From Ophelia neglecta (lineage: Eukaryota), in the NCBI GenBank assembly GCA_965285935.1, contig OZ260663.1, positions 55,986,001 to 56,050,000 on the forward strand: a DNA stretch of 64,000 nt. The letters run 5' to 3'. The notes under the pieces are model-generated. The model had not been told where the DNA came from and ran no database searches. It worked only from the letters and a program-made list of their open reading frames with translations. This document shows positions 36,462 through 63,471 of this stretch, piece after piece (within the stretch, counting starts at the first letter, position 1; the number at the start of each line of letters is the position of its first letter). The position numbers and the translations under genes are program-made.

Positions 36462-36525
36462 ATGGAAGGGAAAACTTTCGGTTATTTGTGTATACTCCTT
36501 GGCATTGTTGCCGGAGTCTGTGCAG
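36462..36525 (+). CDS. apolpp: Apolipophorin exon 1, signal peptide
   Basis: GCCACCATGG context; MEGKTFGYLCILLGIVAGVCA(G) |gtaaat. Confidence 0.88.
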
Positions 36526-39500
36526 GTAAATACCTGATTATTTGCATTATAACCATCTATACTTTCATTATTTTTTTACACAATGTATCAGATTCAAGCT
36601 AGGTTTCCAAAAAGAGCCATACCGTGGACAGTGTAAAGTTTAAAGTTTGCAATAGGTCTGAAATACTTCATAAATAGATTGCTTTTTCATAAAATATAAA
36701 TTACTGACCCTGTTTGTCAAAACTGCGCACCTGAATTCTTTAATATATTTTTCCTAGATAAAGCCAGGGAAGCTACCTTTAGTTATTCGAATACTCGGCT
36801 CCAATTATTTTTTAATTTCATATAAAACGTTGCTGGAATTAGGCATAATGAAGTCAGACTTAACTGATTCACTTTGCCTGATTTCCTTAGTGGAAAATTT
36901 TACGTCAACTTAGCATGACGCTCCGTGGGTAAAGAAATCAACGAGAATCAAAAATGTGAAGTTAAAACAACACCAGTTATTCATTTAGGTTGTATAATTG
37001 TATCGAAATTTGTGATGTGCAGGCTTAAATTAGGTAATTGAACGGATATTATTCCTACAACCATTAGTTTAACCTTCTGGCGATACCTCTGTATAAGTTT
37101 ATGTCGGATGAAAAATATATTATCAGAATGATCCGAGGGGCGATAGCCCCGACGACCATTGTCGTCTGCTAATACAGCGCTCCCAGTGCATTAACTGATG
37201 ATTCAAGAACAACTCGATATAACCTGAAAATAATGTAGTGTTCAGACAAAGGAAAATACATAGGCAGCATTATTTTCCTTCGACAGTTTAACAATACTCA
37301 TCTCTTATTATTACAGGACCAGTTAATGTACAAGAAGCCACATGTGCCAAAGAATGCAGAGGTATGAATTTTTTAGAATTTCCTACCCTTTCAGCGTGTT
37401 TAAAGATTTTATTTAATTTAATTGTTGCTTATATACCATTAGATATTAACCCACCGGGTACATGTATAGTGAAGAGCTTTTACAGCACAGTTTGCCATAC
37501 TAGTTTAGCCTTATAGCCTATTTGGCGTTTTGTCAATTTATCATACACACAGTAACAGCGATATTAAGGATATTGATGTCGGATCTTATATTTATTTTAT
37601 AATATCCTTAATATATAGTCTAAACTACTCTGTGTTATCGTCTTCTTCAATTATTAGCCTCGAAGTTCATTATTTAGCAAAAATGCACAAAGGCTTATCA
37701 CATTAAGCATATACATTTAGCACCAATTATACATATGTATAGTTTAAGTTACTGTTTCATCTATTTATCAACATACCTTAGATGGAGGAATTGAACTAAG
37801 CTTAGCACTTAACATTGACATGTTTATTATCATTGCTGACTACAGGATTCTTGCCTTTTGCAAAGGCCTACCATAAGCACCAAACATAATTTTTCCTAGT
37901 TGAGAAATGTTCCATTTTATGACCACCAGACATAAGTGAATTGCTTATTAAAATGTTCATCCTTATTCCAGTCGACCAGAACACACTAAACTACGAAGTA
38001 GGCAAAACCTACGTATATCAATATGAAGCCGACTCCGTGACCACGCTCCAGGGCGCCTCCGACGAACACTCCAGTCTTCACATCCGAGCCACCGCAGAGA
38101 TCGAGGTCCTTGCTCCTTGTGAGCTCGTGCTCTCAGTAAGTGTCCTAAATTTAAGATACACCCTATATTAAACTTACCAGACTTCCTTTAAAGAGGCAGT
38201 TTTAAATTGATTTTGTAATATTTATGATTTTTACTTGTCAAAACTATGACATATGCTTGTATAAACATTACAACGCTTATTAATTGATTTGTGATAAATA
38301 CCCACCAATCTCGTAGCAAGGCGGGTACTTCAAAGTACAGTGGTATCTCAAATGACTGATTAGCAGAAAGCACGTGACTGAAAGCACACATTTATGTAAT
38401 GTTTAGACACTTGATAAAGTTGCTAACATATATATATATCGACCTATATTGGCACGCACGGATTCATGCACTGGCATTTGAGATCCAATAGACTTCAGGT
38501 CAGAGGACAATGTGATCGTGGCAAGTGGCCACGGTAACTTAAATATCACAACTTGAAATTCATAAACAATTAAATTTAAATTTTACCGGGCTAAGTGCAT
38601 GCCCTATACTAACTATAACGAAAATTGACAGCTATACGAAGTTACATATAATGGGTGTGTACAGAGGCTAGACTTTTTAAATGTGTATGCTGTTGAAATA
38701 AATATCAATATATAACCCATGATAGATTTGAACTATGTGAAGTTACCGTTTAGGCAAATCAAATATGCAAAGTCACAATTTGAAGCCGACGAGCTAGACT
38801 TGATTGACAGGGTGACTGTTGTTTTTCATATGCTTATAAGTATGCTTATCATGATGGATAACATTAATACCTCGCTCCCGATAACAGCCGCAAAAGTGTC
38901 GACACAGTTCGAATGTTAAAATTAAGGATGTGCTAAACTTGTCGAGTGGACGGGTGAACTGGTGATGTAACGGGATCCATCCAAAGGACAATGGAAAGAT
39001 AAATCCGAGTGAAAGTTCATCGCTAATGGCTGCTTACTAAAATACGGCAGATGAGTTTACCCTGTAGCTTCCACGTGGTTTGCATGAACTGCCATTGTAT
39101 TCCACGGTACATTGTCAGTACACCTGCACGTTCCCTTTATACTTAATCAAATAATTAAACAGTTATAGATCCTTCCAAATCAGATAAATTATATCCTTGA
39201 ACATAGGCCCGCTAATGTGCTTTGTGCCATATCATATCTATCGATGTGGACCCTAATAAAAAAAAGAATTTCTACACACCAAACGTACTTTATTGGTCTA
39301 TAACAACAATAGAAGTACTTAATTTTATTATTGTCATGCCATTGTTCACTCATGAACCAATTACTTGAGGCCTACTTGGGAATGAAATGTTCTGTCGTCG
39401 ATCCTGGTGGTATTAAATACTTACCATATTAGTTGCCCTATTTGATTAAAAGACTTTTGGGACATGGCAAAAAGCTTAAGGACAAGAAGCTCTTCAAGAA

Positions 39501-42500
39501 ATTTATCAATTTATCTCGCATTTTGTAGCTGCGGGACGTGACTCTAGAAAACTCCGACCCACGTGACCTGTCCCGGTTGAGGGCCTCCGACAACCAAAGA
39601 GATTTTAAAAATGCACTCGAGTCCAGGCCGCTAAGGTATAACATTTAGTTACCTTTTTTACCTTAAAGATACGTATATCGAACACTGTAAATAAAGTAAG
39701 AACAATTCTTTATATGTATAATTATTAAGTCTGGGGTTAATAGAATTGTTGTAATGAATGTATAGGTTAGAGACTCCCTGACTACTGTTTTGTTTCCAAC
39801 CGTGTTCACTGCCGCCCAAAAAGTTGATTCATTTTTTGCCAGAAAACTTGTCCTCTTTTCTGCCACTTTGGCAAAACTTTGAAAAAAGGGTTATCACTTA
39901 AATTCAGAAAGTCTCCTTCTTCCTCCACATGGCACATCTGTTCACTCAAGACTTTCTCAACTGCAGGGTGTAAGAACCACTCAAATTTTACCTCCTCTGC
40001 GCCAGCGGTCCCTTTGCTACTGGCTTTAGGCTCAGTAGACATGTGTGCTGGGCTCTTACGTTTGTTGCTTTCAGTGTTAGTTGTCATATTTTCCTCCCCA
40101 CACATTAGGCCTCGGGCTTTTTTTCTTTAATAAGTCCTGGCTGTTTACATCCGCCCTGATATTTGATCCACAGGAACTAACCATTTTCTTTTAAATGTGA
40201 GCCTATTATGACGAAAAAACTAGAGGAACAGACTTGGACCAATGATTTGGATCCAGAGTAAACTCCCAGTGTGTATATCCCAGTGTTGTGCGGTGACTTT
40301 CCTTTGTATATGATATTTTCTATTAAATAACGAAACAACTTTATAATGAATTAATATGATTTTGTCCCACTTTCTTTTTCTATGCCATGTGCTCCGATTC
40401 ACAAAATATAAAAATAATAAAAAATACCAGGCATAAATCGACTTTTCGGCAGGCAAGCCTGCCTTCATTGAGACCTTATATGTGTCGGTCTAACTATAGA
40501 TAAGCTGTGGTTTAAATACATATAATATATATAAATAGGCCTATATATGCTTTTCTTATCTAATTTTCTTTTAGAATAATATTTATCTTTATCTTGCTTT
40601 GACCGAGTGGGAGAATGTGTTTTTTTCAATACAGATCCGTAAATTAATTGAATTTATATCGATGTTATAACCGTTGTATATAGGTTTGCCTTTCAAAATG
40701 GCCGTGTTGATGCCATTTGCGCAGCAGACGACGAGCAGCAATGGACTCTTAACATTAAGAGGGGAGTATTGTCTGCCGTCCAGAACTCTATGAGTCATCT
40801 GGAGGTAGACGAAAAAGTGCAGGAAGTAAGTTTATAGGTCTTCCTAAGAATGTTTTAAATTATGATTATCAATATTTCAAACCTACGAGGACTTCCAACT
40901 GTTCATTGTTCAAAAATAGCCGCAAAACAAAATCATTGAGACAAAATATTACTAGTAATCATTTTAACTATGTCTTAACTAGGCCCTATAGCATAATCAG
41001 ACCAATTACATATCAGTGATAAACGCAATATTAGGGTGGTCGTGTTAGTTTATTCATCCTTTGCCTTTGACTACTTTGCACCGACTTCCGGAATTTGTGC
41101 ACATAGTGTATTGGTTACCATTGCAGACCGACGTTGCCGGTGACTGCGAAGCCGAATACAGGGTATCTAACAAGGGATGGAACAGTATTACAATCACCAA
41201 GTCTAAGAATCTCCTGGGCTGTACTGGTCGTACTAACGCCATTACTACCCTACAATCTACACCATACAGTGCCTCATCTGTAAGTGCAATGTGACTAATA
41301 TGATATCCTAGGCCCATGATCAAATATCTGCCGTAATAAACACGTGCATCCGCTTTTCTCTAATTTCAAAGATATTCTGTACCTGGCAACTTCAATTTTA
41401 GTAAATTCTCTTTTGAAAAAAATACCTTTAGTACAATCCGTAAACTGCAAAGATGGTCCTACATGGTCTTTGTAGTTTTAGCAAAGGTACAAATTTCAAC
41501 ATTATGCAATAACATTTTAATTAATTTGCAGGATATTCAGTCTCTTCCGTTGATGAAGAGTGAGCACTCCTGTGAGCAGACAATCTCCAAGTCAGGTCTG
41601 CTGCAGAAGAGCGAGTGTCAGGAAAATCACGTGTTCAGACCATTCTCCAATAAAGGCAGTGGAGCTGCTACCACCGTCCGCCAGATGCTACAATACAGCA
41701 AGGAGTATGGCTACATTCAATCAAGAAATGGTAAGTGTCTTTACGATCACGAGTACTCCTATAAAAGAGATATTTTCGGAAGTGACCTTTTGACCTGTCT
41801 TTTAATTAGAGCAAAAATAACCTCAGCTAGACCTGCCTATGTAGGTTAGGTCAACACTCAATCCCATGCAAAGAATTATACTACAAAAGACTCGATGTTA
41901 AATGTTATTTGATTTGAAGTAAAAATCACTAACAAAGCGATAAAGATAATATCGGGATAGACATTTAAAACCAATTATGCTGCTTTGTTTCGTTTTTTAA
42001 ACATTAAATCTTAATTGTTTCTAGCCCCTGCCGACCGCCGCACGACTCTTACTTACGAACATGAAGGTTCATCCGACACTGCCGATAGGAACGCACAGCG
42101 AGTGATGGAGAAGCTCCAACAGATCTGCTCCATCGAAGACGTGAGGCCAGAGACCCCCCGGCTCTTCAGCGAACTCGTCTACGCCATGAAGGCGCTCAAC
42201 ACATACAGTCTTCAAACCATCCACAACCGCGTGGAGACCAACAGAATGTGCAGCCAGAACCATGACATGGCCAAGTAAGACCGTCATCCATTTACCAAGG
42301 ATTGATTTTTCAAGGGTCGCAGCGTATATATAGATTATTCCGTATAGCTTCAACAGTTTGTATAATAAAACGTTGTGTTTTTCTTGTAGACGATTTTTCC
42401 ATGACGCCCTTCCTGCCATGAGTACGACAGCGTCTGTCAGCCTGATGCAGAAGCTGATTGTATCCAAGGAGATCACTGGTACCGAGGCCGATATGTGGCT

Positions 42501-45500
42501 CACCTCCCTGGCCTTCATCGCACAGCCTACTCAGCAGATGCTTGTCGAGATCAAGGTAGGTCATCCACGCCATACATCCATTGGACTTTATTTACAATGA
42601 ATCCGTACTACTTTGGGATTGAATCTACTGAGCTTGCATAAGCAAATGCATAGGCCAGGTTGAATGTTAAGTACAGCCACATAATGTAGGAATCTGAACC
42701 CGACTTTATTTGTTTTAGCCACTGTTAAATCTGCCCAAGGCCTTACTCTCGGTGTCCAGCATGGTCCACAGTTTCTGCAAGAACTTCGGCGACTGCGAAA
42801 CTAACATCGACGTTCGTGACATAGTCCGCACGCTCACCGAGGAGCTCGGTTACAACTGCCAGGGTGACAGACAAACGGTGACTACTTTCATCGCCATAGA
42901 GAATCAAATTTCAAATAATTAATCCAGAATTCACTGGAACGGATAAGAGCTAGTACCATTAACATACACATCGCAAACAAAAAGAAAATGCTTAGAAATA
43001 AACACAAATTAAACTCAATTATTGTTTAGGAGCATTGCACAATTAAATTGAGTTATTTATATCAAGAATGTTTTGTTTTCAATTTTGAACCTTTTCCTCG
43101 CAGATGTTGCTGACACTTAAAGCTCTCGGCAACATTGGAGTATCTGCCGGAGCTGTTGATACTATCACTCGCTGCACCAACCAGGCCAGCCCCGTCGACG
43201 TGCGTCTGGCAGCCATCAACTCCTTCCGACGCCTCGACTGCGCCCAAAACGTGAGTAGAATACTTTACGTACAACGGAATTTAATGTGTGCGCTATAGGC
43301 CGGCAGAGTCTGTAGTTGAGCTTTGTGTATGATTTCACTTTGGGCTACAGCTATAAGTTCCATATAAACATTCTACCTATTGTTGTTTCCTACAGCGCAT
43401 GGAACTAAGAAACATCTTCGTGAACATGGAGGAGGATTCAGAGGTTAGGATCGCCGCTTACCTCTCCCTGATGCAGTGCCCATCTGAGGAATTGGTCGCT
43501 CTGATCAAAGACAAGCTGGACAGCGAGGAAGTTAACCAGGTCGGATCCTTCGTCTGGACTCACCTGACCAATCTCCAGGAATCTGCCGGAAACTTCAAGA
43601 AGGAGGTCAGGAAGATCCTGGAAGATGAGACCCTCAAGAAGACATTCAACACGGATGCCAGAAAGTATTCTCGAAACTACGAGGGATCTTTCTTCTTTGA
43701 CAGCCTGAACACTGGCGCTATGGTTGAGAGCAACCTGGTCTGGTCCCCGAAAAGCTTTGTTCCACGATCTGCTAATCTTAATCTAACCATTGACCTATTC
43801 GGTCAAAGCATGAACCTATTTGAGTGGGGCGGTCGGGTGGAGGGTCTAGAGAGCTATCTAGAGGCCTTTTTCGGCCCCAACGGATACTTCCCAGACAATG
43901 CGGTCTCTGACGCCCTGAAGAAGCAGAAGAAAGCCGCAAACAACCGCCTATCATCCATCAACGACAAGTACAACGCCAACATGGACGAGCTCAGGGGTTC
44001 AGCTTACATGAGAATCTTCGGAAACGAGCTAGCCTTCTGGGATTACTCTGGATCTGGAAAGCGCGGGGAGAAGGAACAATTCAACTTCCTTGAGTTCTTG
44101 ATCAAGCTGGCCCAAGACCACCAGATGGAGTACACCAAGAGCTTCATGTTCCTCGACTCCGAGGTTCACATCCCCACCGTGATCGGTATGCCCCTGAAGT
44201 TGTCTGTCAATGGCACAGCCACCATCGACCTGAAGGTTGGCGGCAAAATGGACATCCGCAAGGCAGGCGCCAGCCCCAGCTCCTTCGACATCAACGGCTA
44301 CGTCAAACCAAGGTCAATTAACATCCAACTTCTCATTTATATTTGAACAAAATGCCCCTTTTTTGAGCAGCTTAGAATCAAAATATCTTTAAAACCACAT
44401 GAATCCGCATTTACGAGGATATAAATGCCCATAGCCAAGGCAAATAGAACAATTTTTCACCAAATTCCCTTTTTTGTATCCAACTAAATAAAGTTCAAAG
44501 TAATATTTTAATTTGCTGCTGATTAACGTAACTTGACGAGAATGTTTTGTTGTGTTAACAGCGGTGCAGTAGAGATCTCCGGAGTGATGACAATGGACGC
44601 CACCGTGGCCCGTAGTGGTCTCAAGATGGTCACCACACTTCACTCGAGCACCGAGATGGATGGTCAGCTCCAGCTGAAGGACAGCAAGGCCTTTAACATA
44701 AAATTCAACATGCCCAAAGAAAAGATGGAAATCTTAAATGTCCAGTAAGTTTATTCGATACATTCCTGACTCAGTAGTCTCTTATTTCCAATCTATAGAT
44801 TCATAGCCAAGTGAAGATAAATGAAAACATATATATATATGTGCAAAAGAATAATTGACTACCCAAGGGATAACACTAAGCAAATACATGGGTATATTCT
44901 GTCCCTGCTAAAATTACTATTCCATGTAAAGTGTTATCCCTTTAAATAAAGCTCAGTGGCGGTTTTGTTATTTACAACATCTTTGGGCCAATAGTTGTGA
45001 TTAAATGGAGGTGTGTCGGGACAAGAGGTATATGGTGATGTTATTTCGCCGCAGGACTCAATTTTTCATCATGGACCGTGACCAAGAGCGTGAACAGAGC
45101 ATGCCAAACACTCCCCGTGTCCAGAAGAACATGTGTACATGTAACGGCCTGACCACCCTGCTAGGTGTCCAGCTGTGCGGGGACGTATCCTACCCAGGCC
45201 GCGGCAGCCAGGAGGAAACTCCCTACTTCCCCTTCAATGGCCCCCTCAACGCCTCCCTCGCCCTCTACCGCCGCGACACCCACCAGTCTTATGAGTTTGA
45301 GGCTCGTGTTGAGGCTAAGAAGGTAACGTTCTATTCCACAGCATGATAGCAGTTGAAGAACAAAATCTCTGAAGCTAAATATAAAAAAAACTAAAACGAA
45401 TTACAGCTATTTTGAGGCAGGGGGTGTTTTACCCCCATGCATAATGGGCAATCCATAATAAGCATTTTGGACGAGTTATAATTAGACTAAAGATGAATAA

Positions 45501-48500
45501 GCGGTTTCTTTCTTGCAGGAGCGCCTTAATGGAGTTGTCGGCTACACCAACATTGCGAGGTTGGCCTTCAACACCCCCGGCTCCCAAGTAGACCGCGAAC
45601 TTCTTCTCGACTTCAACCTCAACAAATTGGCAAAAACACTGAATGCTGAAGTACGATCTCCATGGAAGCGAGCTTCTGCTACTGGTAATCTATTAGGCCA
45701 TAGTCCCATGGCGTCTTTAAGTTGATTGTTGTACTGTTTGTTGATTTTTCCGAAGCAGTTTTAGCAACAAGGCTAGTTAATGGGTCATATTTATGAATTA
45801 CATTTACTCAATAAAATGGCCATTGATTTAATCAGTAATTCCGGTGATTATACAGAAAGCATCACAGATTATAAAATGAATAGACAGTGAAGGCTATTTC
45901 TGTTTATACGAAGGCACTTTCGAGAAATGTTTTCAAAACACTTCATTATTATTAATTTGAGCTGTTTTATTCTCATCAAGGTGCCTTGGTGACCGATGCC
46001 GACGCCAAGCGTCTGACCTTCACCGCCGATATGGACGGAGAACAAATGATCTCTGTGACCGGTGACCTACAACAGGAGACTGTAGCTAATGGACGCCGCT
46101 ACATGCCAACCGCCGAGGTTCGTTTACCAGGCCGCAAGCCAATCAACGCCCGTGCTAGCCTGAGCTTCCAGCCCGGCAAGGAGTACGACGCCGATTTCTC
46201 TTTGGATAATGTCTTTGACACGACAGTGGCCGTGAAGGGTAAGCTCGTTTACCACCCGCTTGTGTGTGTGTGGGGGGGGGAAGGGTGTATCATTTGTTTT
46301 ATTTGTAAACAAATATGAAATATGTAAAATATCAACAAATTGATTTCAGTCGTGTCTGATTAGTTCTAACAGTTTATAGACCTATAGTCAAGGGTTTGTA
46401 CAAAGAGAAGCTTGAATTTCAATATTGTATCACTGATCAGCATCCAACATGTGTTTGTGCTCATTTCCTTTATTTACCCATTTTTGTGCTCAGGCAAAGT
46501 TGAACAGAAGGGAAGTAAAGATGAGGTCCGTTTCGACACAGAGTTTGAAGTGCAGACACCTGTTTTCAACACCAAAATGAAAGGCTTCGTCGAGAACAAG
46601 AAAACATTAGCCCGGTCCCGCCTGGAATTTGGCTATGACTTCGCCTCAAAGACAACTCACAGTTTTGTACTCAACGGAAAGTTCAGAGACCAGTCGAAGA
46701 AGAATAATCTGCAGTACAGCTCTGTCTTGTACGTTCAGTACTTGAAATACTAATGGCCTACAATTTGCCATCCAATCAACTTAACATTGCCTTTTCCACA
46801 TTTCAGAATCTATAGCTCAATTATCAAATGTTTAACAGTGTATTTTTCCCATTGTGCAGCGCTGTACAGAGTTCCCAATTTCCCGACTACCAATTTGACA
46901 TCGATGCCAATATGAAGAAGACCAACAGACACTTCGAAAACAAAATAGAGATCCAGTATGGCGCGGACAGCAAAGATTACTCCAAACGTATCGCATTCTC
47001 ACAGGAAGCCAATCTGGTGCAAGGCGATGAGCTGCAAGCCGACCATTCAATGAGTCTCAAAATCAAACCGCTGGTAAGACTTCGTTATTAACACCAAGGC
47101 CTTTGAAAACCGGACTTCTCATATCTGTCTTTTTAGAAATATTTCTTTATAATAGGCAACAATATTTCCATTTTGCTTTGAGTTGATACAACACCAATAA
47201 AAAAGCTATAGTATTAATAATGTGTTCTTCCAGAGCATCATCATGACCAGCCGCATTGAACATTCACACAGTATGAATGAACTTAAGACCAAGGGCATGT
47301 TTAGTTATACACCTGGTAAGGAGATCTCAGTGGATCTTGGCCTAAAGCGGGACACAAATGACCTGATGAAAATGAACGGGAACCTTCTTGTGACCATCCC
47401 CAACCGCGAGATTAAGCTGATGACCAATTTGGAGGAGACCCAGGTGGACACTTTCAATCACGAGATGACCGCTCAATGGCGTAGCGATGCCCAGTTCCGC
47501 ACCATGACCACCTACAGCCGTGTACTATCGCAAGGGCGTCACGAATTCCGCTCCGAGATATTTCCACCAACAAACGAAGCTATAACCGTCACTGGCCTGA
47601 CGGTTCTTGATGTCAAGGACTTCCAAGCAAAGTTCCAGGCTGACCTCAATGAAAAATCATACGGAGCAGGCATTAACTATAATTTTGACCTAAAAAAAGA
47701 TGTATCAATCGGTGTAAATCTGGATGCTTACTGCCCAGCCAGGCACATAAGCTTTGACGCCAAAATAGATGGTTCTAAGAATGTATATCGCCTTAAGTCC
47801 AACACCCAGTGGGATGCTGACCGGGATTCTACAAAGCAAGTTACAGTCGTCGGTACCATGGACAACCTGGAGAGTGCCAACCTGAAGGTTAACTACCCAG
47901 GCCGTAAGATTACCCTTAACCTGAAGCAGAAGATGGATCAAAGCAAATTCAACGCACACGGGGACCTGTCCTGGGATGTTGGCAGTAGTATCACATTCGA
48001 CGCTGACTACAATTACAAGTTTGGTTACAACAGCAAGGCTCTTCAGGGATCCATCGCTTTGGATACACCATTCAAGTTTGCTAGGGAGCTTAAACTGGCC
48101 ATTGACCACAATAACGACCTTACTGACTCCTCTTCCAAGCTAGATATTACCTACGCTCCGAGCAAGACAATCACCACTCTTATTGTTGGCAAGCGGGTTA
48201 ACGGTTGGAGACAGATGGAAAATAAACTGACACTGACTACCCCTTTCGTCGCCCTCAGTACATTCAGCTTGGCCACGACTCACGAGATTGCTGACACAGA
48301 AATGAATGTCAATGTAGCCATTGCACGCAACCAAAACATTGTCAACATCGACCTCCTGGCTAAGAATGAGGCATTCTCAAATATTGAAATGAGAGCCAGT
48401 CTGAAGTCTAACCTACCTAGAATGACAAGTGCTAGCCTACATATGACCCACGTAGCCCGGAATCAGCAGATGCAGTCCCGGCTGAGCGGAGATTGGGAAG

Positions 48501-51500: not shown

Positions 51501-54500
51501 GACAGATATCTGGAAATCTGAGACTGGAGACCCCAATTCCGGGTGCCGAAAGTACTACTCTTATATTCAGTCACAAGGGAGATGTTTCTGACTTCGAGAC
51601 AAACGTGGTGATGTCCTATGCTCATGGCGAGATGCGTGGTGATGTCACGTTCAACGACAGCCCTGTATCTGCTACACTCGCACTAAGAACACCTTACACC
51701 AGTATGAAGGAAGCCACTCTGACGGCTAGCCACTCTGGTAATGGCTACGGATTCAACACCGAAGCTAGTTTCCGACACAACCTGCTCGGTGCATTCACCT
51801 ACAATGGTCAATTCACAACCAGAAATAACATCAAAGGTGAGTTCACAGTTAATACCCCATTCCAGGGATACGAGAACATGTACTCACGCTTTAGTCACTG
51901 GACCCAGACACCCGGGTTCAGTTCTGCGGCCGAGATGGGCATCGGGGAGAAGGTTGTAAAGGCCAATGCTGAGTTGACCGTGGATTCTAATATACAGGCT
52001 ACTGCCACTCTACAAACCCCTTTCACCCCGGTCAAGGACTTCGTGATCACACTGACCCACGACGGTGGCTTAAGGAACTTCCAGACTACCATGCAAGTCG
52101 ATCTCAACAGGGAAAGACAGGTTGAGGCACAGGGCTCTTTAAATACTGACACTACCATCAATGGCAACTTCAACATTATCTCAAAATTCGGTAGACACAG
52201 AGTTACCTTCAGGCATTCCGGTGATATCAACTCAACGGTAGAGACGAGCGGCATGATTTCTTACCCGGGTGGTGAAATTAACGGAGATCTTAACCTGCAG
52301 ATTCGCCCTGAGTTAGATGGTACCTTCCATCTGAAGAGTACCATCCCTTACCTTCGAGACATGACCATCGTAGCCAAGCACGGCGGATACAGTGGCAGCT
52401 CCTTTACATCTGAACTCACCTTCAGCCACGACATTCTTGGCAGATTGACGTATAGCGGAACCCTGAGGACGAACCCATCTATCAATGGCTTATTTACCAT
52501 TGAAACACCATTTCCAGCAATCAGAAACATGAATTTGAAATTTGGTCACAATAGCGATAGTTCAAAGGTACAGACGAACGCCGAGGCAACCTACAACGGG
52601 ATGACCTATTCGGCCGCAGGAGATCTTAAATTCAATCCCAGCGTAGATGGTTCCCTGCGCATTTACACACCCCACACTATGCTCCGTGACTTCAGCCTTG
52701 TCGTCTCCCACAACGGTGACATGAACGAGTTCAAGAACAATTTTGGACTTACGTACAACCGTCAACAGATCGCTCAAGCAGAGGGCTCTTGGACAAGAAA
52801 CCCTATCCAAGCCAGCATAAGTGTCAGCACCCAAAGTGACTATCTCAGATCTCTGCAGCTAAAGGCTAGCAGCCGAGGTTCCAGTGCCGACAGGCAAACA
52901 TCTGCCAGCGTGAACTATAATGGGCAACAGATCGCCAATGGAGAAATGAGCCTTAAATCCAATCCTGCCGTCCAGGGAACGCTGCAGATTAACACCGTGT
53001 GGTCTAATATCAACGACCTGTTTGTCTCAGTGAACCACAACGGCGATATGTCTGCTTTCAATTGCAACGGCCAGGTCAGATATAATAACGAGCACACTTT
53101 TGAGGGTACCGCTGAATTCTCCCAGGCTCCATTAAAGGGCAAGATTACTCTAAACACACCTTTCCAAACAGTCAGAGACCTGAGCGCAGCTTTCAGTCAT
53201 GATGGTAACTTTGACAGATTCCAAACCCATGCCGAATTCAGTCATGCAAGCAACAAATACGAAGTGGATGGCTCCTTCCAAAGCAGTCCGTTGAAGTTCA
53301 CTTGTGGTATAAAAACACCTTTCGAGGGTGCTCGTAACCTAAATGCAATGTTTAAACATAAAGGCGACATGGAAAAATTCTCCACACACGCTGAGACCAG
53401 CCTTGACGGGTACCAGTGGCAGGTTGATACCACATTCCAGCGCCTTCCATTAGAGGTTAACGTTGACGTGAGAACGCCATTAGGTGGCTACCGCAAGATG
53501 AACGCTGCTATCACACAGACCGGAAACACTGCCCACGCTGAGCTGAGCTGTGGAAGAAACAAAATCGAGGCCGACGGTTTCCTCCAATTGCAGCCCCTGA
53601 ACGCCAACATTGTTCTCAAGACTCCCTTCCGAGGCGCCAAGAAGCTGAATGCTGCTGTCAAGCATAATGGTGATCTTAGTGCATTTCAGTCTCATGCCGA
53701 GGCCGGGTGGGAAACTGGTCGAGTAAGCGTAGATGCTGCCTTCAGCAAATATCCACTGCAGGGAAGCTTCAATATCCAGCTGCCAATCCGCGGTGCTAAC
53801 AAGATCAATCTGGCCTTCAACCGCGAAGGAAAGAACGGCCATATTGAAGGAAGCTGCGACTACGCCAAAATAGAGGTTGATGGATCTTTCCAGCCCGAGC
53901 CCTTAGAAGCTAACATCCACGTACAGACTCCCTGGGAGGGCGCCCACAACCTGAAAGCAGCTCTTAGACACAATGGAAACCAGGCCCATGCCGAGGCTAG
54001 CTATGATAATGGTAAATTTGAAGCTGATGGTAGTTTAGAAATTAGTCCCTTCAGAGCCGAATTGAATGTAAAGACCCCATTCCAAGGATTTACTAACATG
54101 TTTGCTACACTGAAGCATGATGGCGACAGGAATGCTTTGCAGACTAATGCCGAGGCAAGTTATGACAATGGCAAATTCGAGGCTGCCGGAACTTTCCAGC
54201 GTCGCCCACTTAATGTTCAACTGAACGTCAAAACCCCATTCGATGGTGCCCGAAATGTCAACGCCGCTTTCAACCACCGTGCCTACAGAGGGACATTTAA
54301 TTCCCACTACGAGACTAGCTTTGACTACGGCAAGTATGAGGCAGACACTTCTCTTACCATTGACCCATTGACGTATGAACTGAGTATCAAGACTCCCCAT
54401 GCTGGTTACACCAACATAAACGCCATATTGACCCATACCGGGGATTTGGAAGCCTTCGAGACTCATGGCGAAGCTACTTACGATTACGGCAAAATTGAAG

Positions 54501-57500
54501 CCGATGGTTCCTTTAGACAATTTCCCCTCGAGGCTAAATTTGGTTTGAAAACTCCTTTCCCTGCTGCACGCGACGTTAACGCTTTTGTCAGTCACAGCGG
54601 AGACGCCGAAGCCTTCCAGACCCTTGTTGAGGGAAATGTCAACAACCAGAAGGCTGAGGCCAAGGCCATCTTTACCCGCCAACCCATGCAGGCAAGCTTT
54701 ACTATGAAAACTCCATTTGATTACGCTCGTGATATCCAAGCCACTGTTAAACACGAGGGAGACATGAGTGGGTTCGAAACCAAAGCTGTTGTTGGCAATG
54801 AAAAAGGCAAGTTTGAAATTCTTGCAAATGCTCAACGTCGACCACTCGGTGCCAAGCTAACCATCAACACACCAATCCAAGGCTATGAGCAAATGGGACT
54901 AGAACTGAGCCACAAGGGCACTATGAACAAAGCTTTCCGCTCCCAGGCATCTGTCAACTACCAAGCGGGTAAAACTATATCCCTTGAGGCCCAATACAAG
55001 AACCTTGGCCGCCTTGTCGGTAATGTCCAGCTCACAACCCCATTCAGAGGCTACGAATCTATTGGTGCCAGCGTGCGCCATGACGGTGACATGGACGGTC
55101 TTAGATCTAAAGCTGAACTAACCTTTGGAAGTAAAACCCTCTCTGGAGATGTTGACCTGAAATTTCAGCCTAACGTTCAAGGCACCGTTCAACTGAAATC
55201 ACCGTTATCTGGACTGGAAGAAGTGAACATCAATGTTCATCATAAGCTAGACGCAAGCTCAGTTGACTCGAAGGTCTCCTTGTCTACCCCAAGTGGCGAA
55301 ATCAACGTAGCAGTGAACGGACAGTACACTAATCTCTTGGATATGAGCGGCTCTATGTCTGTATCGTCCCCTATCAAGTCAGTTTCCGTCAGTGGCAAAA
55401 CCCATGGCAGCCCCAGCAACATTCGCGCTGAGATTCAGGCCACAAGCGATGGTAAGGTGATGTCAATGAGTGCTGATGTACAGACCACACAGGGCCTGAA
55501 AGTCAATGTGGTCGTCAACACATCCTTCGCCGGGTATGAGGAGCTGACCTTTAACCTCGACCACCAGGGAACCATTGGCCAGTTTGAGACTTCTGCTGCT
55601 CTGAAGAACGGCCGCAGAGCAATCACCGCCAGTGCTCAGATACAGACTGACAGACAGATAGTCTTCTCGGCCAATGTACAGACTCCATTCCGTTCCTTGT
55701 CCCAGGCTAGCGTCAGTCTCAACCATGCTGGCAGCATCCAACGATTCAGAACAAATGTCCGCTTTACATGCAACAATCAAAAGCCCATGACAGCCGGTGT
55801 TACTTTTGTGAATGATCGCCAATTCCAAATGAATTTCGACCTCAGCTGCCCATACGTCGAGGGCGTCTCTCTTACCATGAACCACGAAGGTCTCATTAGC
55901 CGCTTCAACTCCCAAGCATCATTAAAGAATGGCCGGGACGAGTCCACCGTCAAGGTAGATTTCCAAATGGTTGAAGGAGTGACCCTAAAGACCGAAATCA
56001 CCTCACCCTACATGGAAGCTCCAATCAACGTCGAGCTGACTCACGAAGGCAACATGAATGCTTTCACTACCAAGGCTTCGGCTAATGCCATCAGGGCTGA
56101 CGTCACATGGACCAGCAACAACAACTATTTAAGCCTTAAGGCCGGCATTGAATCTCCAGCCTTTGAGAGGATTGATACCGTGTTCACGTTGAACGGAAAC
56201 ATGGCTAATTTGCAGGCCAATGCCGACATATCATATTCACGTAATCAGAAGATCTCCACCAATATAGTTTACAACAGCAACAATGGTATACCTGTAATTG
56301 TTGAGGCTACATTCACTAGCCCCTTCAAAAATGCAGAAAATCTTGCTCTAGACCTGAAGAATACAATTAGCTACGGAAAATTCAGTTCCCGTGGAAGTTT
56401 CAGCTGGGCAACCCGCCAGGCCATCAACATTCAAACGGTCGGCAGGTATGCTGGTTCACTAACGGACCTAAGCATCAGTGGCTTCCTGAAGGTCAAGACG
56501 CCGTTTACTGCTGTCCGGTCCATGGTACTCAACCTGAACCATGCCCACCGTGCCAATAGTCTAACAAGCAAGATTGACATGGGCGTTAATGGACAGGATA
56601 TCCTGGATGCTGAAGTCCAGCTAAGTCCAAGCAGCGGCAGCCTCATCTCCCGTCAGCCCCATCCCGCTACAGCCAGCTATGAAGTGCAAGGTGACAATTC
56701 CAACATCGCAGTCAACTGGAATACGGCAAGCCGAGACAGCAACATTCGCATGGAGGTAACAAACAAGGACGAAAGCTCTTACTACCGGACCAATCGAGTC
56801 CTAGCTGTACGTACCATCACTCCCACTAGGACTATGTCATTGAGCGCCGATCTTGACTGGAGCAAGCAGACTTTCATCCAGAAAACCGCTTTGATATGGG
56901 ATGCCAGCCAGGAGAGAGAGTTCTCTTATGAGATCAACCTGAACGACCGCTCCCGTCGAGGGCAGAATATCTGCGATGGGAGTGTCCGTCTCAACACCCC
57001 AGTGCGCAGCTTCGAGGTACAGGGTTCACACAATGACGACTCCAGGACCTTCACCACCAAGGCCACCTTGAAGTGGGATGCCGCCCGTGATGAGACAAGG
57101 ATGTTGACTCTGTCAAACACCTACCAGACCATCGGCAATGAGCATGTCGCCCAGATCACCATCGCTCACCCATCTCTAAACAAGGTAAATAAATACTGTT
57201 CTATTAAAAAATAAGATAAAATCTTCAATGGTATATCCGTGTTTGCAATTGAAAAATGTTTCAATAAGTTACTATAACTACATTCATAAATTGTGCATGT
57301 TAATATAAACAGCCACATTACGTGCAAGCTTATGGGAAAAATGTATGCTATTTTCTGCAGGACATATCTCTTCGTAACTCGTTCACCCTGAACGACGATA
57401 AAATTATGTTTTCCGGACGTACCGAGATCGAATACAGCGACAACGCCGACGAAACAATTGTCCTAAGCGCAAATGTGGAGAACAAGGACTCAAACTACAC

Positions 57501-60500
57501 TATGACGCTGAATATTGCCCATCCTGTTAACGCCATCGATGTAGGCATCATAGGTAACGGGGCCAACACCCGTGATGTTATGACCGCAGGACTGAACATG
57601 CGCTATATGAATGCCCGCCGACAGACCGAAATGTACCGCCTCCTCGGCCAGATCGAAAAACTAAGGAAAAGCTTGAAAATGGAGGTAGGCCTATTAACCA
57701 TCAGTGCTAAAGACCGAACAGCAAGAGCCTAAGTCATTTCTTCAGAAAAAAATGCATCCTTTTGCTTCAATGTGATTAATTTGCATTGGTATCGAGCATT
57801 CATTAATGTACAGTAATTCATAACATATATTTCAGGCCACAATTAAAAAAACGCAATCAAATTATAGGCCTAAAATTTACTCCTTATACTATGTAGCTGG
57901 ACAGTCCCATGAAGAAACTGGAGGTTTTCGGAAAAGTAACGCCTACTTCGGATGGATACTCCGGAAACTTGGTCGCCAAAGAAGACAATGAAGAGAAAAT
58001 GAGCGCAACAATAAACGTTGGAAAGAATTCAATGAACCTCGAGGCCCATCTAAACCCTGGTGAGCCTAATACCCACTGGTCATATCCATAGCATACCGAC
58101 AGGGGGTGTTATATAATTGTTTGAATAGGCTATAACGAAGTATTTCCGATGATGCCATGCATATCAAATGAAATCAATATTTTCCAATTCGTTATAATTA
58201 TTATGTTCGTATTGCCAAATTAACAAATTTGGCATATGGTCTTGTAAAATTAATCCCTAGATTTTTAAAAAGGCGGAAAACATTTACTTTAGAACAATTG
58301 ATGAATCAATACGTCCATACAAATACAAATACTATATTAGTGTCTCATCCCGCCCACAGAGAAGCCAGAGAATCTGTTGCACATCAGTGGAGAATATCAG
58401 AGCCCAGTCAACATGAAAATGGATGTCTACCGCCATATTGATGGCAGCCCTATCTCCGACACCAATGTGGCCTTTGATCTGAAGAACCGCCGTCTGCTGC
58501 ATTCCCGTGTCTACCTTCGTCCAGGTATGACCGATGACGTGCTAGCCAGTGCTGCCGACACGGCTTTCCGTGCCAACCGTAAGCTAGCGCTGGTGTGGGA
58601 GCAGGCCAGCAATAAGGTCCAGGAAGAATACCGCCAGAAAGCCTACATCATCCAGAGGAACCTGCCAAACATGACCCCAGTCACTGATTACCTAACCGCA
58701 GAGGCTGCCAGCTTCCGCCGGGACGCCCAGGCTATCGAGCGCGCTTGGACTAGAATGTACTACAACAATGAATTCTACGTGAGAAGCATCGAGTCCGCGG
58801 CGAAGAGCACAGCAGAGGCGCTTAGTGAATTCTGTGCCCAACAAATGGGCAAGATCAGAACGTGTCTGCAGCGAGTAGCCACGACCATGTCCGAGAAGAC
58901 AGCCGCAATCCGATTATGGTGCGCTGAGATATGTAATAATCTCACCGCCAATGCCCTTCTAATGTCTCAAGCGGTCTCTGACCAGGCTGCTGTCGTCTAT
59001 GAGACAATGATGGGCCAATACGCCGTGGTCAACCACGCCTTCCTCATCAAATATAACTCTGCACAGGCATGGGCCAAGAACCAGACCGACATTATGAAGG
59101 TGAAGGCCGTAGCAGCTCTGGAGAGAGCCATGGAGGTGATTGCACCCTATGCTGAAGCCTATATCCGCTACTACAACCACGCCACGAAGTGGATCAACGC
59201 AAACAAGGAGAGGATCGCACAGAAGGCCGAAGGTGAGCATAGTCTTCTTAGAATGAGAAGACCGAAGAGTTTTCGAAATCAAATAAAACAATAATGGAAA
59301 ATCAAATGATATTGATTAAGATCGTTTCTTTTACTATATAATGACAAAAACCATTACCCTACAGAGCTGGCCGCTAAAATCCCATATGAGAAGATCGAGG
59401 CCGTTCTGGAGTATGCCTCCAGACGTCTGTCCCAGATTCAGATTCTCGCCGAGACTGCTTTCCAGCAGTACCTAAAAGTATACGGTGGCTTCCTGGAAAA
59501 AATCTCCGAATACGACTTCCTCAGACCCATCTACAATGTTCACCTAGAGGTGAGACCTAAATCTAGTTTAAACAAAACATCTATTAAAACTCAATAAATG
59601 CCTTATAAGTGGAAGGAAATAGCATCGTTGCTGTACAGCTGTACGACCGCATTTATATTTAGCTAAGGTGAACGACGAATGTATATATAATGGCCAGCTC
59701 GGAGCCATTTGTTTTTTTTACAGACGCCAGAATCGTTTGCCGTAATGGTGATATCGTTTTCCTTGATTAATTTCCCGATTTCAAAATTTATCATTAATTG
59801 ATTTTTTCCTTGAAGGTTGTTGAGAAAGTAGAAGGTTTGCTGGCTGCTCTCCAAGCCGCCTCCGATCGGCCCGTTCAGACCGCCAGATTAGTCCTGATCC
59901 GTAGCACTCGCATTGCAAGCCAAATCTCGGCCGAAATCATGGCAAACATTAACCAGGAGTACGTGGCCAACTTCGCCCAGGATATCATTGACAAGGTAAT
60001 GACATTTCTTTCACCAAGCAATAAGTCTTAAACTATGTTCTGCAAGGAGTTGACGTCATGGAAGTGTTATATTATAAGGTCATTGGGCATGCCGCTTCAT
60101 TCCGCTTAAACTTGTGTGTATGTATCGTAAATAAAAAAAGTATTATAATTCCCATCATCTTGCTTAACAGTACTATTTGAAACACACACTAGCTTAATGT
60201 TCCATAAACGTACCTGTTTGGTATCCTCGACAGACTCGCTGGGCTTACAACCACTACGAGATCGAGAAGAATGTACTCGGTGCCGTCAAAGGTTTGGCCA
60301 GCTCCGGCGTCCGATTCGTCAAGGACAACGCCTTTTACCTGGTCAACGACTACCTCGGCCTGGAGAAGGACCGCCTGATAGCGTACAACCCCAGAGGAGG
60401 AGAGCTTGAGTTTGAGCTTTACGTGCCCACCGACCTTCCCAGTCTAACTCATGTTCCCGTGGAGGGAGTAACTGGTCTCTACAACAGTCTAAAGAAGGCA

Positions 60501-63471
60501 GCCGGTGAACTGAAAGCGGCCATAACAGCCCCCACTGACTTCAACATGTGGGACATGTACTATCAGTACAAACCAGACTCCAACCCCGCTAACTGGGTCC
60601 CACCATTCTCCGGTAATCAACCAGAATCATGTCATGCAGAGGCCTAATGTGTTCTCAATTAAATATAACCCCGCTCTTACTGCATAGCTATGCAATCAAT
60701 TCAAATGCCTTCTCATTTTATCACCAATGTGTTGACACGTCACCTAGACTAGGTTTTGACAATGTTTGGTTTTAATTCTGCAGTTTGCGATAATCTTTAA
60801 AGTCATTTGCCCTTTTTTTAATATTAGCTTACGCTGCTATATCCGGCGATCAACATATTATGACTTTCGACAAGAAATTCTACGAATTTGCTGGAAGCTG
60901 CAGCTATGTGTTGGCCAGCGACTTTATTGACGGCAACTTTAGTGTTATCGCCAACTTCAAGAACGGAGCAAGGTAAGACATCCCAGTCTTTGATGGCAAT
61001 ATTCTGTGAGAAAAAAGAATACAATAGGGCCTATAGACTTATGGTCCTTGGTGTTAATTTTAACATACATCCGGGTCTACGTTTAGGGTGGCCTCTATAT
61101 GGCAAATCTCTACATATAGAGATGGTTTAAACATTAAAACATTAAACAACTACATAGAGTTGACACCTATCCGATCGATTTCCAATTTTTGAGAGAACTA
61201 TCATTATATTGAAAGCAATGGTCTTTCAGAAAGTCGATCACCGTTGTGAGCAACGACCAAGATATTGAGATAGGAGCTGACGTGAATGTGAACGGGGAAG
61301 ATACCGAGCTGCCATACGAGTACCTCAATACCACAGTCCTCCGCTCCGGTGACGTCATCCGTCTGGACAACACCAAAGGACTTACTGTTATCTGTGACCT
61401 CCAGCAAGACTTCTGTTCAGTGGCCATTTCTGGGTGGTACTTCGGCAAGACCGCTGGCCTGATGGGAACCTTCAACAACGAACCCAGCGATGACTTCATG
61501 ACCTCCGATCGCCAACTGACCTCCAGCGTGGAGGTGTTTGCTCAGTCTTGGGCTGTGGGCAATTGCCGTGATCGTACCAACTATGCCGTTGAGGCAGAAC
61601 TTCTCGGCGTCGAGGGCACCGAATGCAGCAAGTTCTTCATGCAGCGTGGTTCCACTCTGAGAAACTGCTTCAAGGTTGTCCGACCAGAGCCTTTCTTCCG
61701 TATGTGTTCTGCCGCCGAACGCCGTAGGGCCCCTGGTGCAGAGTGCAAGGTCGCTGGCTTCTACCGTGCCGTATGTGCCCGTGCAGGAGTGGAAGTGGAT
61801 ATGCCAGCACGTTGCTCTCGCTGTGACAAACCTGGCACGGGAGAGTTCGCCGGTGAGGAGATGCTAACCTTGACCAGACCGCCCCAGTCAGCCGATGTTG
61901 TCTTTGTAGTTGAGGAGAAGCCCTGTAACGCGGATGCAGTCAGCCGTCTATCAAGCCTGGGTAACAAGATTGACATTGAACTACACAATCTTGGCCTAAA
62001 AAACAACCACTTTGGTTTGGTTGGTTTTGGTGGCGCTGGTATTCATGCCAATGTACACAGCCACACGGTCGGAGGACATCTCTTGGACGACAGCCGCATT
62101 AGACAGGCCGTATTGAGCCTCCAGCTGGAGGGCGAGGGAGAAAGCGACGCCTTTTCAGCCGTAAAATTCGCAGCTGCCTATCCTTTCCGTGCCGGAGTAT
62201 CCAAAACCATTGTCCTAGTAACCTGTGGTACCTGCCAGGAAGTCGAAACCAGTTATGACGACTTGGAAGAAATCCTGGATGACTTGTCCATCACCCTGCA
62301 TGTCCTTACAGAGCATGACTTCCAGATGGAGGGAAACTCGCAGTCCCCAAAGACAAACTATCTTTTTGGTGTGTATAATACCTAATCATTATCTATATCG
62401 ATGGTATCATCGATTCATAAAACGTAAGCATATGACTTTCGATCAGCATGATGATACTTTGCTTTTACCAACAGGTGTTGATGCACAGACTGCCTTCACT
62501 GTGCGCCACGTCAGCGACAAGGAATTGGCCGGAGATCCAGCACTGTTCGCCAAGCTTGCTGAGCCCGAGTCTACCTGCTCTGATATGGCACAGGAAACCG
62601 GTGGTTCCTTCTTCAATATAAAGAAACTGACTGAAGGACGTGTGAGATTCCAGAAGAGTTTTGCTGACATTTTCAGCCGCCGCGTTGCCAAGACGGCAGT
62701 ACCAGCCTCCTGCCAGGTGTGTGAGTGCCAGGCTCAGAAGAACGGGGTCGGCATGTCGGTGTGCAGGCCATGCATCGAAGACAACCCCGCCAAACAGGTT
62801 AGTTGGCCAGGTTTCAATTCATACTAACACCAGGCGAATCAAGAACCAATCATTCCGTGTTGACACCCACTGATTGCTTCTGTTAGTGCAAATTTAAATT
62901 GACCATTCATTGTTCAGCATTTGCTACTTTTTAGCTTTTTCTTGACAAGCTATATTCGAGCTATTTCTTTAACGTGTTGTTTTTGCTGCGTGATTATTCT
63001 TCACAGTTTATGGAATAAAATACTGTGAATATATTATCATAAGAGATGTCAATATAACTACATTATGTTACAGGTGATGCTTGAGAGCAAGCTGGTCGTC
63101 CCCAATGAGGATAACACCGCGCCAGGCCGCAAAGTGAAGAAGACCAGAGCTCTGAGACTAAGGAAGACCAAGGTTTGTACCTTTTTTTTAATTGCAACCC
63201 AGCTTTGAACGTATTTTGCCAAATATAATACTATATGCGTAAACATTTTTGTGATTAATGGTATAGATTTATTTTCGAACCAATCGATTAAAAACATAGA
63301 TAGGCTAATGCCTATTCAAATTTGTCCGATCGCTCCAAATCTTGATGATATATGGAATTATTTTCTGAAGATATAAAAGAATTGTAAATATCATTGGCCA
63401 TATGTGGTAAAACAATTCTTGGTTTTCATTCTACCTATACTTCTACATTTCAGAGAGCAAGGAGCTCGTGA
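36462..63471 (+). CDS. apolpp: Giant apolipophorin / apoB-like large lipid transfer protein precursor (30 exons, 5,871 aa)
   Basis: Phase-consistent exons: 36462-36525, 37317-37361, 37972-38135, 39529-39635, 40684-40825, 41127-41279, 41532-41730, 42025-42274, 42390-42555, 42719-42877, 43104-43250, 43396-44312, 44562-44744, 45055-45322, 45519-45684, 45981-46238, 46494-46728, 46860-47073, 47234-57184, 57361-57684, 57897-58059, 58360-59232, 59365-59549, 59816-59995, 60234-60612, 60828-60972, 61230-62368, 62475-62797, 63074-63172, 63454-63471 (total 17,616 nt). LLT motifs NIKRGVLSAVQ, ETDVAGDC, LKALGNIG, DSEVRIAAYL, NQVGSFV, SFVPRSA; C-terminal vWD HIMTFD...CSYVL. The symbol denotes the family; exact orthology is untested. 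Confidence 0.92.
37317..37361 (+). CDS. apolpp: Apolipophorin exon 2 (45-nt micro-exon)
   Basis: ttacag| GPVNVQEATCAKECR |gtatga; phase 1-1. Confidence 0.78.
37972..38135 (+). CDS. apolpp: Apolipophorin exon 3, start of vitellogenin-N domain
   Basis: LNYEVGKTYVYQYEADS...PCELVLS. Confidence 0.92.
39529..39635 (+). CDS. apolpp: Apolipophorin exon 4
   Basis: LRDVTLENSDP...DFKNALESRPL(R). Confidence 0.9.
40684..40825 (+). CDS. apolpp: Apolipophorin exon 5
   Basis: FAFQNGRVDAICAADDEQQWTLNIKRGVLSAVQ. Confidence 0.94.
41127..41279 (+). CDS. apolpp: Apolipophorin exon 6
   Basis: TDVAGDCEAEY...KSKNLLGC. Confidence 0.93.
41532..41730 (+). CDS. apolpp: Apolipophorin exon 7
   Basis: DIQSLPLMKSEHSCEQ...CQENHVFRPFSNKGSGA. 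Confidence 0.92.
42025..42274 (+). CDS. apolpp: Apolipophorin exon 8
   Basis: RRTTLTYEHE...PRLFSELVYAMK. Confidence 0.9.
42390..42555 (+). CDS. apolpp: Apolipophorin exon 9
   Basis: RFFHDALP...ADMWLTSLAFIAQPT. Confidence 0.91.
42719..42877 (+). CDS. apolpp: Apolipophorin exon 10
   Basis: PLLNLPKALLSVSSMVHSFC...LGYNCQGDRQT. Confidence 0.9.
43104..43250 (+). CDS. apolpp: Apolipophorin exon 11
   Basis: MLLTLKALGNIG...VRLAAINSFRRLDC. Confidence 0.93.
43396..44312 (+). CDS. apolpp: Apolipophorin exon 12 (end of helical domain, open beta-sheet)
   Basis: DSEVRIAAYL...NQVGSFVWTHL...SFVPRSANLNLT...PTVIGMPLKL. Confidence 0.95.
44562..44744 (+). CDS. apolpp: Apolipophorin exon 13
   Basis: SGAVEISGVMTMDA...PKEKMEILNV(Q). 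Confidence 0.9.
45055..45322 (+). CDS. apolpp: Apolipophorin exon 14
   Basis: LLGVQLCG...PYFPFNGP. Confidence 0.9.
45519..45684 (+). CDS. apolpp: Apolipophorin exon 15
   Basis: FNTPGSQVDRE...RSPWK. Confidence 0.9.
45981..46238 (+). CDS. apolpp: Apolipophorin exon 16
   Basis: Open and phase-consistent; aag acceptor, gtaagc donor. Confidence 0.85.
46494..46728 (+). CDS. apolpp: Apolipophorin exon 17
   Basis: Open and phase-consistent; gtacgt donor. Confidence 0.85.
46860..47073 (+). CDS. apolpp: Apolipophorin exon 18
   Basis: AVQSSQFPDYQF...KIKPL |gtaaga. Confidence 0.87.
47234..57184 (+). CDS. apolpp: Apolipophorin exon 19: giant 9,951-nt exon encoding a repetitive amphipathic beta region
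   Basis: ttccag| acceptor, uninterrupted 3,317 codons, aag|gtaaat donor; roughly 40 recognisable [TS]P[FYWHIL] motifs. Confidence 0.93.
57361..57684 (+). CDS. apolpp: Apolipophorin exon 20
   Basis: DISLRNSFTL...KSLKME |gtaggc. Confidence 0.88.
57897..58059 (+). CDS. apolpp: Apolipophorin exon 21
   Basis: LDSPMKKLEV...HLNP |gtgagc. Confidence 0.85.
58360..59232 (+). CDS. apolpp: Apolipophorin exon 22 (transition from beta to helical region)
   Basis: RLLHSRVYLRP followed by Ala/Glu/Lys-rich helical sequence with YYNNEFYV. Confidence 0.9.
59365..59549 (+). CDS. apolpp: Apolipophorin exon 23
   Basis: ELAAKIPYEKIEAVLEY...VHLE |gtgaga; not in the ORF track. Confidence 0.85.
59816..59995 (+). 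CDS. apolpp: Apolipophorin exon 24
   Basis: VVEKVEGLLAAL...DIIDK |gtaat. Confidence 0.85.
60234..60612 (+). CDS. apolpp: Apolipophorin exon 25
   Basis: TRWAYNHYEIE...NWVPPFS. Confidence 0.9.
60828..60972 (+). CDS. apolpp: Apolipophorin exon 26, vWD start
   Basis: GDQHIMTFDKKFYEFAGSCSYVLASDFIDGNFSV. Confidence 0.94.
61230..62368 (+). CDS. apolpp: Apolipophorin exon 27: vWD, C8 and vWA-like domain
   Basis: GWYFGKTAGLMGTFNNEPSDDF; CFKVVRPEPFFRMC; ADVVFVVEE...FGLVGFG...FRAGVSKTIVLV. Confidence 0.93.
62475..62797 (+). CDS. apolpp: Apolipophorin exon 28
   Basis: GVDAQTAF...CSDMAQETGGSFF...CQVCEC...CRPC. Confidence 0.9.
63074..63172 (+). CDS. apolpp: Apolipophorin exon 29 (basic tail)
   Basis: ttacag| VMLESKLVVPNEDNTAPGRKVKKTRALRLRKTK |gtttgt. 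Confidence 0.72.
63454..63471 (+). CDS. apolpp: Apolipophorin terminal coding exon
   Basis: tttcag| RARSS*; TGA at 63469-63471. Confidence 0.65.
   Translation, partial: RARSS

Follow-up and report, generated by a model that had tools for sequence, protein, structure and literature searches.

We examined a 64,000-nucleotide (nt) stretch of the Ophelia neglecta genome (assembly GCA_965285935.1, contig OZ260663.1, positions 55,986,001 to 56,050,000 of the forward strand), hereafter the window. It holds a gene whose predicted product, a protein of 5,871 amino acids (aa) and ~652 kDa, combines an LLT module of the kind found in apolipophorins and apoB with a very long repetitive belt encoded by one giant exon. 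Positions below are those of the window, and the gene has the following features.

36462..63471, + strand: whole gene, 30 exons, 5,871 aa; rebuilt by script from the DNA and matched by collinear relatives
36462..36525, + strand: exon 1, hydrophobic N-terminus, likely signal peptide judged from the sequence
37972..43566, + strand: LLT module (Vitellogenin_N, PF01347), exons 3-12; seven exons match the profile in order
43663..44744, + strand: open beta-sheet domain (PF09172), exons 12-13; E values 1.6e-57 and 4.6e-12
43912..43947, + strand: loop where relatives bear the apoLp-II/I-type furin site, located by LLT alignment; no R-X-K/R-R here
45055..45322, + strand: DUF1081 (PF06448), exon 14; E 3.1e-8, above the cut-off
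47234..57184, + strand: giant exon 19, 3,317 aa, predicted amphipathic beta-belt, from the repeat profile and structure predictions
53132..55171, + strand: block of the most similar repeats (aa 3246-3925), 49-56 aa per unit, with 20-51% mutual identity
56948..56959, + strand: RSRR, aa 4518-4521, near the belt end; sole canonical furin motif of the protein
58360..59995, + strand: predicted amphipathic alpha-helical region, exons 22-24 (aa ~4800-5200), from hydrophobic moments
60828..61512, + strand: vWD domain, exons 26-27; E 2.2e-8 and 7.4e-14
61639..61806, + strand: C8 domain, weak; E 0.0013, 19.5 bits against a curated cut-off of 23.7
61831..62797, + strand: vWA-like domain and Cys-rich end; weak, Pfam VWA E 0.066 only
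63074..63471, + strand: exons 29-30, a short tail rich in K/R, with the stop; the model is least certain here

The script rebuild reproduced the gene structure proposed by the initial annotation: 30 phase-consistent exons run from the ATG at 36462 to the TGA at 63469-63471, the sole stop, and give 17,616 nt of coding sequence free of internal stops. All 29 introns have GT-AG borders and the phases agree (the exon 16 acceptor is AAG). The splicing is predicted from genomic DNA, and exons 29 and 30 were placed by splice signals and frame only. Exon 19 (9,951 nt, 47234-57184, aa 1280-4596) has phases 0/0 and lies within an open frame of 3,337 codons, a length far beyond chance. Three DNA contig sets from one sample cover this exon with no listed insertion or deletion; they retain the introns and so behave as DNA, and they are possibly the window's own source and thus not independent. 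A 20-letter joint between 46280 and 55740 in one contig was dismissed as a short repeat match. At the gene's ends, a TATA-like word occurs at 36332, 130 nt upstream of the ATG, and AATAAA at 63561, 90 nt downstream of the stop.

Pfam searches on single-exon translations (21 exons) found the domains in the expected order: Vitellogenin_N, Vit_open_b-sht, DUF1081, VWD and then a sub-threshold C8. Exon 12 matched apoB-100 (E 2.5e-21) and lipovitellin (E 1.9e-5). The PF01347 LLT module joined to the PF09172 open beta-sheet places the predicted protein in the LLTP superfamily. Within it, the APO group is marked by DUF1081 after the LLT module (PMC10799875), and DUF1081 stands in that place here. From its domains, the predicted product is a long apolipoprotein of this group (apoLTP, dLp-BGBP or mollusc apolipophorin-like). 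The proposal of an apolipophorin- or apoB-like LLTP is thus borne out by the Pfam domains and the exon 12 match. Also borne out is the joining of a vWD-C8 end to an apoB-like belt, which two structure predictions support. The vWA-like tail, overlooked by the initial annotation, was matched by 79 of 120 listed relatives, so that a belt followed by a vWD-C8-vWA tail is the common layout. In the region of exons 22-24, the helical hydrophobic moment exceeds the strand moment.

It is highly improbable that the model joins two genes or that exon 19 lies outside the message. Such a reading can point to support for this gene coming from genomic DNA alone, to the fragmentary state of some database entries, and to the phase 0/0 exon, which could be skipped in frame. 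Against it, the introns after exon 5 are all short (106-310 nt each), and relatives in one piece run from the N-terminus to the vWA. Capitella CAPTEDRAFT_222921 (5,328 aa) aligns across model residues 10-5825, and Tubulanus XP_074643894.1 (6,314 aa) has matches to the N-terminus, to both ends of the belt and to the tail, in the same order; because these one-piece relatives are collinear with the model, a single gene is supported. Several relatives occupy contigs about three times their own length and are likely spliced transcripts. We also tested the exon 19 boundary in 79 relatives of at least 1,500 aa (new identifiers among 150 listed, plus 4). In 37 of the 79, the protein terminates no more than 40 residues from model residue 4596, which is what one would see if the same exon had been called as a lone open reading frame, and a paralogue in the same genome shares both exon 19 boundaries and their phases. 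Relatives are often fragmented or labelled 'uncharacterized' in databases, as had been anticipated. Two observations concern possible isoforms: omission of exon 19 would yield a 2,554-aa in-frame protein, and entries named, for example, 'apolipophorin long isoform' in databases are a hint that molluscs have isoforms. A literature search on squid long isoforms found no papers.

Exon 19 consists of about 50 amphipathic units in tandem, each of about 53 residues and four predicted strands. Its autocorrelation peaks at a lag of 53 residues, and a profile seeded on nine units and then iterated marks 50-52 units within aa 1283-4567. At ≥ 10 bits the iterated profile, which was trained on the exon 19 units themselves, found 49 units here and 25 in the paralogue exon, and the seed profile found 33 and 17. 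No match of ≥ 10 bits arose in 20 shuffles or in the reversed exon. The 20-51% identity among the units in aa 3246-3872, within the block of most similar repeats, is a sign of later duplications. A self-BLAST of the whole protein gave no off-diagonal matches; chunked BLAST and the profile did detect the repeats. No credible Pfam or PDB sequence match to exon 19 was found, and weak matches to DUF2804 and GAPDH were rejected. The description of a repeat belt appears to be new, as we did not find it in the literature searched, which left out most subscription papers. The legend of a figure in the study of the snail protein BgApo1 does say 'internal repeats', the protein meant not being apparent from the part concerned (PMC10799875). 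The BgApo1 peptide lists of that study hold peptides that look belt-like by eye, and its transcripts are highest in the digestive gland.

We predicted the structure of two parts of the belt with AlphaFold2. For aa 3605-4140 (42 sequences), the mean predicted local distance difference test score (pLDDT) was 94.4, with 40 strands, four per unit, and no helix of 4 or more residues. The strands have a hydrophobic and a polar face: their mean hydropathy difference is 3.9, compared with 1.6 (maximum 2.3) in 1,000 shuffles. The second model, aa 1280-2279 (31 sequences; pLDDT 77.5), has 51 strands within its first 724 residues, and in Foldseek its best matches, at ranks 1-2, were apoB-100 (E 6e-9, TMq 0.26-0.27). 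The apoB belt comprises 1,774 residues and 120 strands over 61 nm (PMC11839476); extrapolation of the two models gives 224-281 strands and 108-143 nm for the belt here. The belt is accordingly predicted to be a continuous single-layer antiparallel sheet with four strands per unit, roughly twice apoB's 120-strand belt. In these models the likeness to apoB is one of architecture only, and it is credible because the LLT head is shared.

We surveyed lengths across the family with the Capitella LLT region as query among proteins of 2,930-9,324 aa, which gave 290 relatives, 120 of them listed. The claim that the protein is longer than apoB-100 holds (5,871 against 4,563 aa), whereas the view that this length is unusual does not: 38 of the 120 listed relatives exceed apoB-100 and 10 exceed 5,871 aa (median 4,219 aa). 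These longer members include two thrips (6,404 and 6,418 aa), Artemia (6,183 aa), a millipede (5,888 aa), a tunicate (6,559 aa), corals (6,042 and 6,215 aa) and two other proteins (6,245 and 6,907 aa). Relatives' lengths are database predictions, one of which (Lamprigera, 5,915 aa) is possibly a fused model; a cloned member of 4,831 aa has been published from the mud crab (PMC8416765). By these predicted lengths, the protein belongs to the upper tenth of the family and is no record. A partial Argopecten entry of 4,877 aa covers model residues ~1061-5459 only, and the full protein should therefore exceed 6,000 aa. Two open reading frames of 4,625 and 4,824 aa may be even larger giant exons.

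Among the predicted sequences, belt length accounts for nearly all of the length variation in the family. We retrieved 132 relatives, of which 88 have both belt anchors and 53 are complete; in the complete ones the non-belt part measures 2,227 +/- 55 aa and the belt ranges from 1,439 to 4,669 aa. With 3,581 aa, the belt here is longer than 79 of the 88 anchored belts, the other nine being as long or longer. In 21 proteins tested, a period of 52-57 aa is clear in lophotrochozoan and priapulid members and weak in arthropods. Two corals, with members of more than 6,000 aa, have a strong period of 26 residues; as this is half of the 53-residue unit, it possibly reflects an ancestral repeat at the level of a hairpin. 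Where the belt begins, several relatives match Pfam PF21013 ('LOC400499 family'), as do amphioxus and newt members, which suggests a chordate branch of the family; a literature search for LOC400499 with vitellogenin found no papers.

Two further Vitellogenin_N genes lie in the same genome.

62599913-62618150 of the same contig, - strand: paralogue with the same layout, 6.6 Mb away
37219000-37229100 of another contig (contig C8), - strand: third Vitellogenin_N gene, detected with Pfam; possibly MTP-like, judged by eye

The giant exon of the paralogue has ~1,996 codons, and its furin motif following the LLT module is intact; its overall length is estimated at ~4,550 aa. We placed the proteins in a FastTree phylogeny built from 77 LLT regions over 849 columns, with two corals as the root; one short row was left out. 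In this tree, a check suggested by the initial annotation and containing no Vtg, MTP or apoB, the protein nests among apolipophorin-like proteins. It is sister to its two nearest relatives (support 0.91), followed by Tubulanus (0.95) and Owenia (0.76). The paralogue groups with Capitella (0.94-0.997), which points to an annelid host and to two old lineages. Insect apoLTP has a clade of its own, as do the decapod-type proteins, and the present protein lies outside the insect apoLTP clade (support 1.0).

Cleavage after the LLT module occurs in Drosophila apoLpp and apoLTP (PMC3406001, PMC8545670). An R-X-K/R-R motif at that place is present in 30 of 77 aligned rows, among them the two nearest relatives, both Owenia rows, two of three Tubulanus rows, Capitella and the paralogue. 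It is absent from the present protein, as it is from the mollusc and decapod rows, and the DNA runs list no variant at the loop. Since this site is absent, the product is likely one chain of at least ~4,500 residues.

Taken together, the gene most likely encodes a secreted lipoprotein scaffold that works like apoB-100, with an LLT head, an amphipathic belt, a helical cap and a vWD-C8-vWA tail. As in related proteins, whose lipoprotein role is documented (PMC3406001, PMC8416765), the product would be secreted and loaded with lipid through its N-terminal LLT module with the aid of MTP. The amphipathic beta-belt would then surround the lipid, the helical region would cap the lipid surface, and the tail may bind receptors or partners. 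The belt itself most likely grew by tandem duplication of units within one exon.

Several points weigh against this interpretation. The gene is known from genomic DNA alone. The LLT tree was built without apoB, MTP, Vtg or named apoLp-II/I sequences, and support at the deep nodes is weak. No sequence similarity between exon 19 and apoB was found. The folded portion amounts to 1,536 of the 3,317 exon 19 residues, and within it residues 739-881 of the second model have pLDDT below 50. Teneurin follows close behind apoB in the Foldseek search with that model (E 1.2e-8, TMq 0.10), and with the repeat-block model apoB ranks 21 (E 1.6e-3; its TMq of 0.32 is the highest listed). VIA-align places LptD and usher barrels (Z 12-15, root-mean-square deviation (rmsd) 13-36) above apoB (Z 10.8, rmsd 28.7). 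We read its matches to LptD, ushers, teneurin and Rhs shells as a generic beta-meander likeness, and the fold match of the models is thus partly generic.

In a sharper form of the initial annotation's idea of an unusually large particle, the belt could have a more specific meaning, if the uncut chain made one turn around a single disc or sphere of ~35-45 nm and if belt length set particle size throughout the family. The extrapolated belt would measure 34-46 nm across at one turn, and the discoidal lipoproteins of Nereis and Astacus reportedly measure close to 42 nm in diameter. Within the family it is the belt alone that differs in length, and the first furin site is lost here. However, a single fixed-length apoB belt serves particles of ~17 to 80 nm (PMC11839476), and therefore belt length need not set size; the belt may also overlap itself or wind twice. 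Known discoidal particles, moreover, carry subunits of 240-247 and 80-85 kDa (Nereis 247 + 85, crayfish 240 + 80; PMC8416765), a mismatch to an uncut 650-kDa chain. The reported 85-kDa subunit agrees better with the paralogue, in which the kept furin site would release a piece of ~80 kDa, than with this gene. We regard the single large particle as possible but doubtful.

If the product were a polyprotein like decapod dLp/HDL-BGBP, pieces released by convertases would scaffold separate particles of ordinary size, and the length of the precursor would be uninformative on size. In crab and crayfish, two cuts turn precursors of ~4,800 aa into three products (PMC8416765), and an RSRR lies near the end of the belt here. 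This site is canonical in 3 of 91 anchored relatives, and dibasic sequence occurs in its loop in 44 of 90 rows, compared with 394 of 1,710 background windows (a rough comparison, as window sizes differ). The distance from the end of the helical region made it appealing to equate RSRR with the second decapod furin site, but the profile of the region failed to align to that site in six of six decapod-type proteins. As the 5,871 aa hold a single canonical motif and the belt itself contains none, we consider the polyprotein unlikely. A role like that of the insect lipid transfer particle, which is scarce and dense and, unlike a bulk carrier, catalyses the movement of lipid between cells and other lipoproteins, would suit the LLT-belt-vWD-C8-vWA layout, which equals that of Rhodnius apoLTP. 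It would also suit the presence of two such genes in the genome, comparable to Drosophila apoLpp and apoLTP (PMC3406001). Layout, however, does not reveal function, and besides lying outside the insect apoLTP clade the protein has 28% identity to Rhodnius apoLTP, compared with 37-49% to named lophotrochozoans. This role too seems improbable to us.

Building on the scaffold reading, we tentatively suggest a wider scheme, although as a whole it is rather unlikely to hold. Invertebrate APO-group LLTPs would have an extensible belt of ~53-residue four-strand units in a conserved phase-0 exon, and the number of units would dial particle size. The uncut copy described here, with a belt about twice that of apoB, would be able to encircle a ~40-nm particle on its own, and the same animal would also make the shorter paralogue, which can be cleaved. 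If true, the long and short paralogues in one animal would be a natural test of the size rule. Being longer than apoB-100 is ordinary for the group; the value of the gene lies in its anatomy. Unit number varies threefold with the rest of the protein nearly fixed, which suggests how apoB-type belts grow. The gene and its paralogue are also candidate scaffolds for the discoidal lipoprotein of polychaetes. Elsewhere in the window (22085-25828, + strand), upstream of the gene, lie exons of an ADAMTS-type gene that match the ADAMTS cysteine-rich and TSP1_ADAMTS profiles and have no visible tie to the lipid carrier.

We compared the protein with known systems. The long apolipophorin-like LLTPs of annelids, nemerteans and molluscs (Capitella CAPTEDRAFT_222921, Tubulanus XP_074643894.1, Owenia, Ostrea) have the same domain order and a belt period of 52-56 aa, and the exon 19 boundary recurs in other relatives. 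LLT-region identity is 37-49% for these named rows and 54% for the two nearest relatives, which keep the first furin site that is absent here. Biomphalaria BgApo1 (3,607 aa) is a published example (PMC10799875). With human apoB-100 the protein shares the LLT head, a predicted long amphipathic beta-belt and the lack of a cut after the LLT module. ApoB has 120 strands, nine large inserts, a C-terminal helical insert and no vWD, whereas the folded parts here are without large helical inserts and the belt is an overt tandem repeat followed by a vWD-C8-vWA tail. The insect apolipophorin-II/I precursor of about 3,300 aa likewise has an LLT module, DUF1081 and a C-terminal vWD, but it is furin-cut into apoLp-II and -I at the R-X-K/R-R site missing here. 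Insect apoLTP (Drosophila CG15828; Rhodnius, 4,233 aa) shares LLT, DUF1943, DUF1081, belt, vWD, C8 and the vWA-like tail. It differs in its separate clade (on a tree with weak deep nodes), in a weakly periodic belt about half as long, and in the furin cut that follows the vitellogenin-N domain of the Drosophila protein (PMC3406001). Decapod dLp/HDL-BGBP (mud crab, 4,831 aa; PMC8416765) is likewise an APO-group LLTP longer than apoB-100, and penaeid proteins of dLp-like layout, so labelled for their length, their two furin motifs and the missing vWD, have ~40% LLT identity. The decapod proteins are without a vWD tail and have internal furin sites at two places, near aa 3,000 and near aa 4,100; here a vWD-C8-vWA tail is present, with one furin motif whose region did not align to the second of those sites. 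ApoLTP and dLp/HDL-BGBP, rather than the shorter apoLp-II/I, are the fitting comparison.

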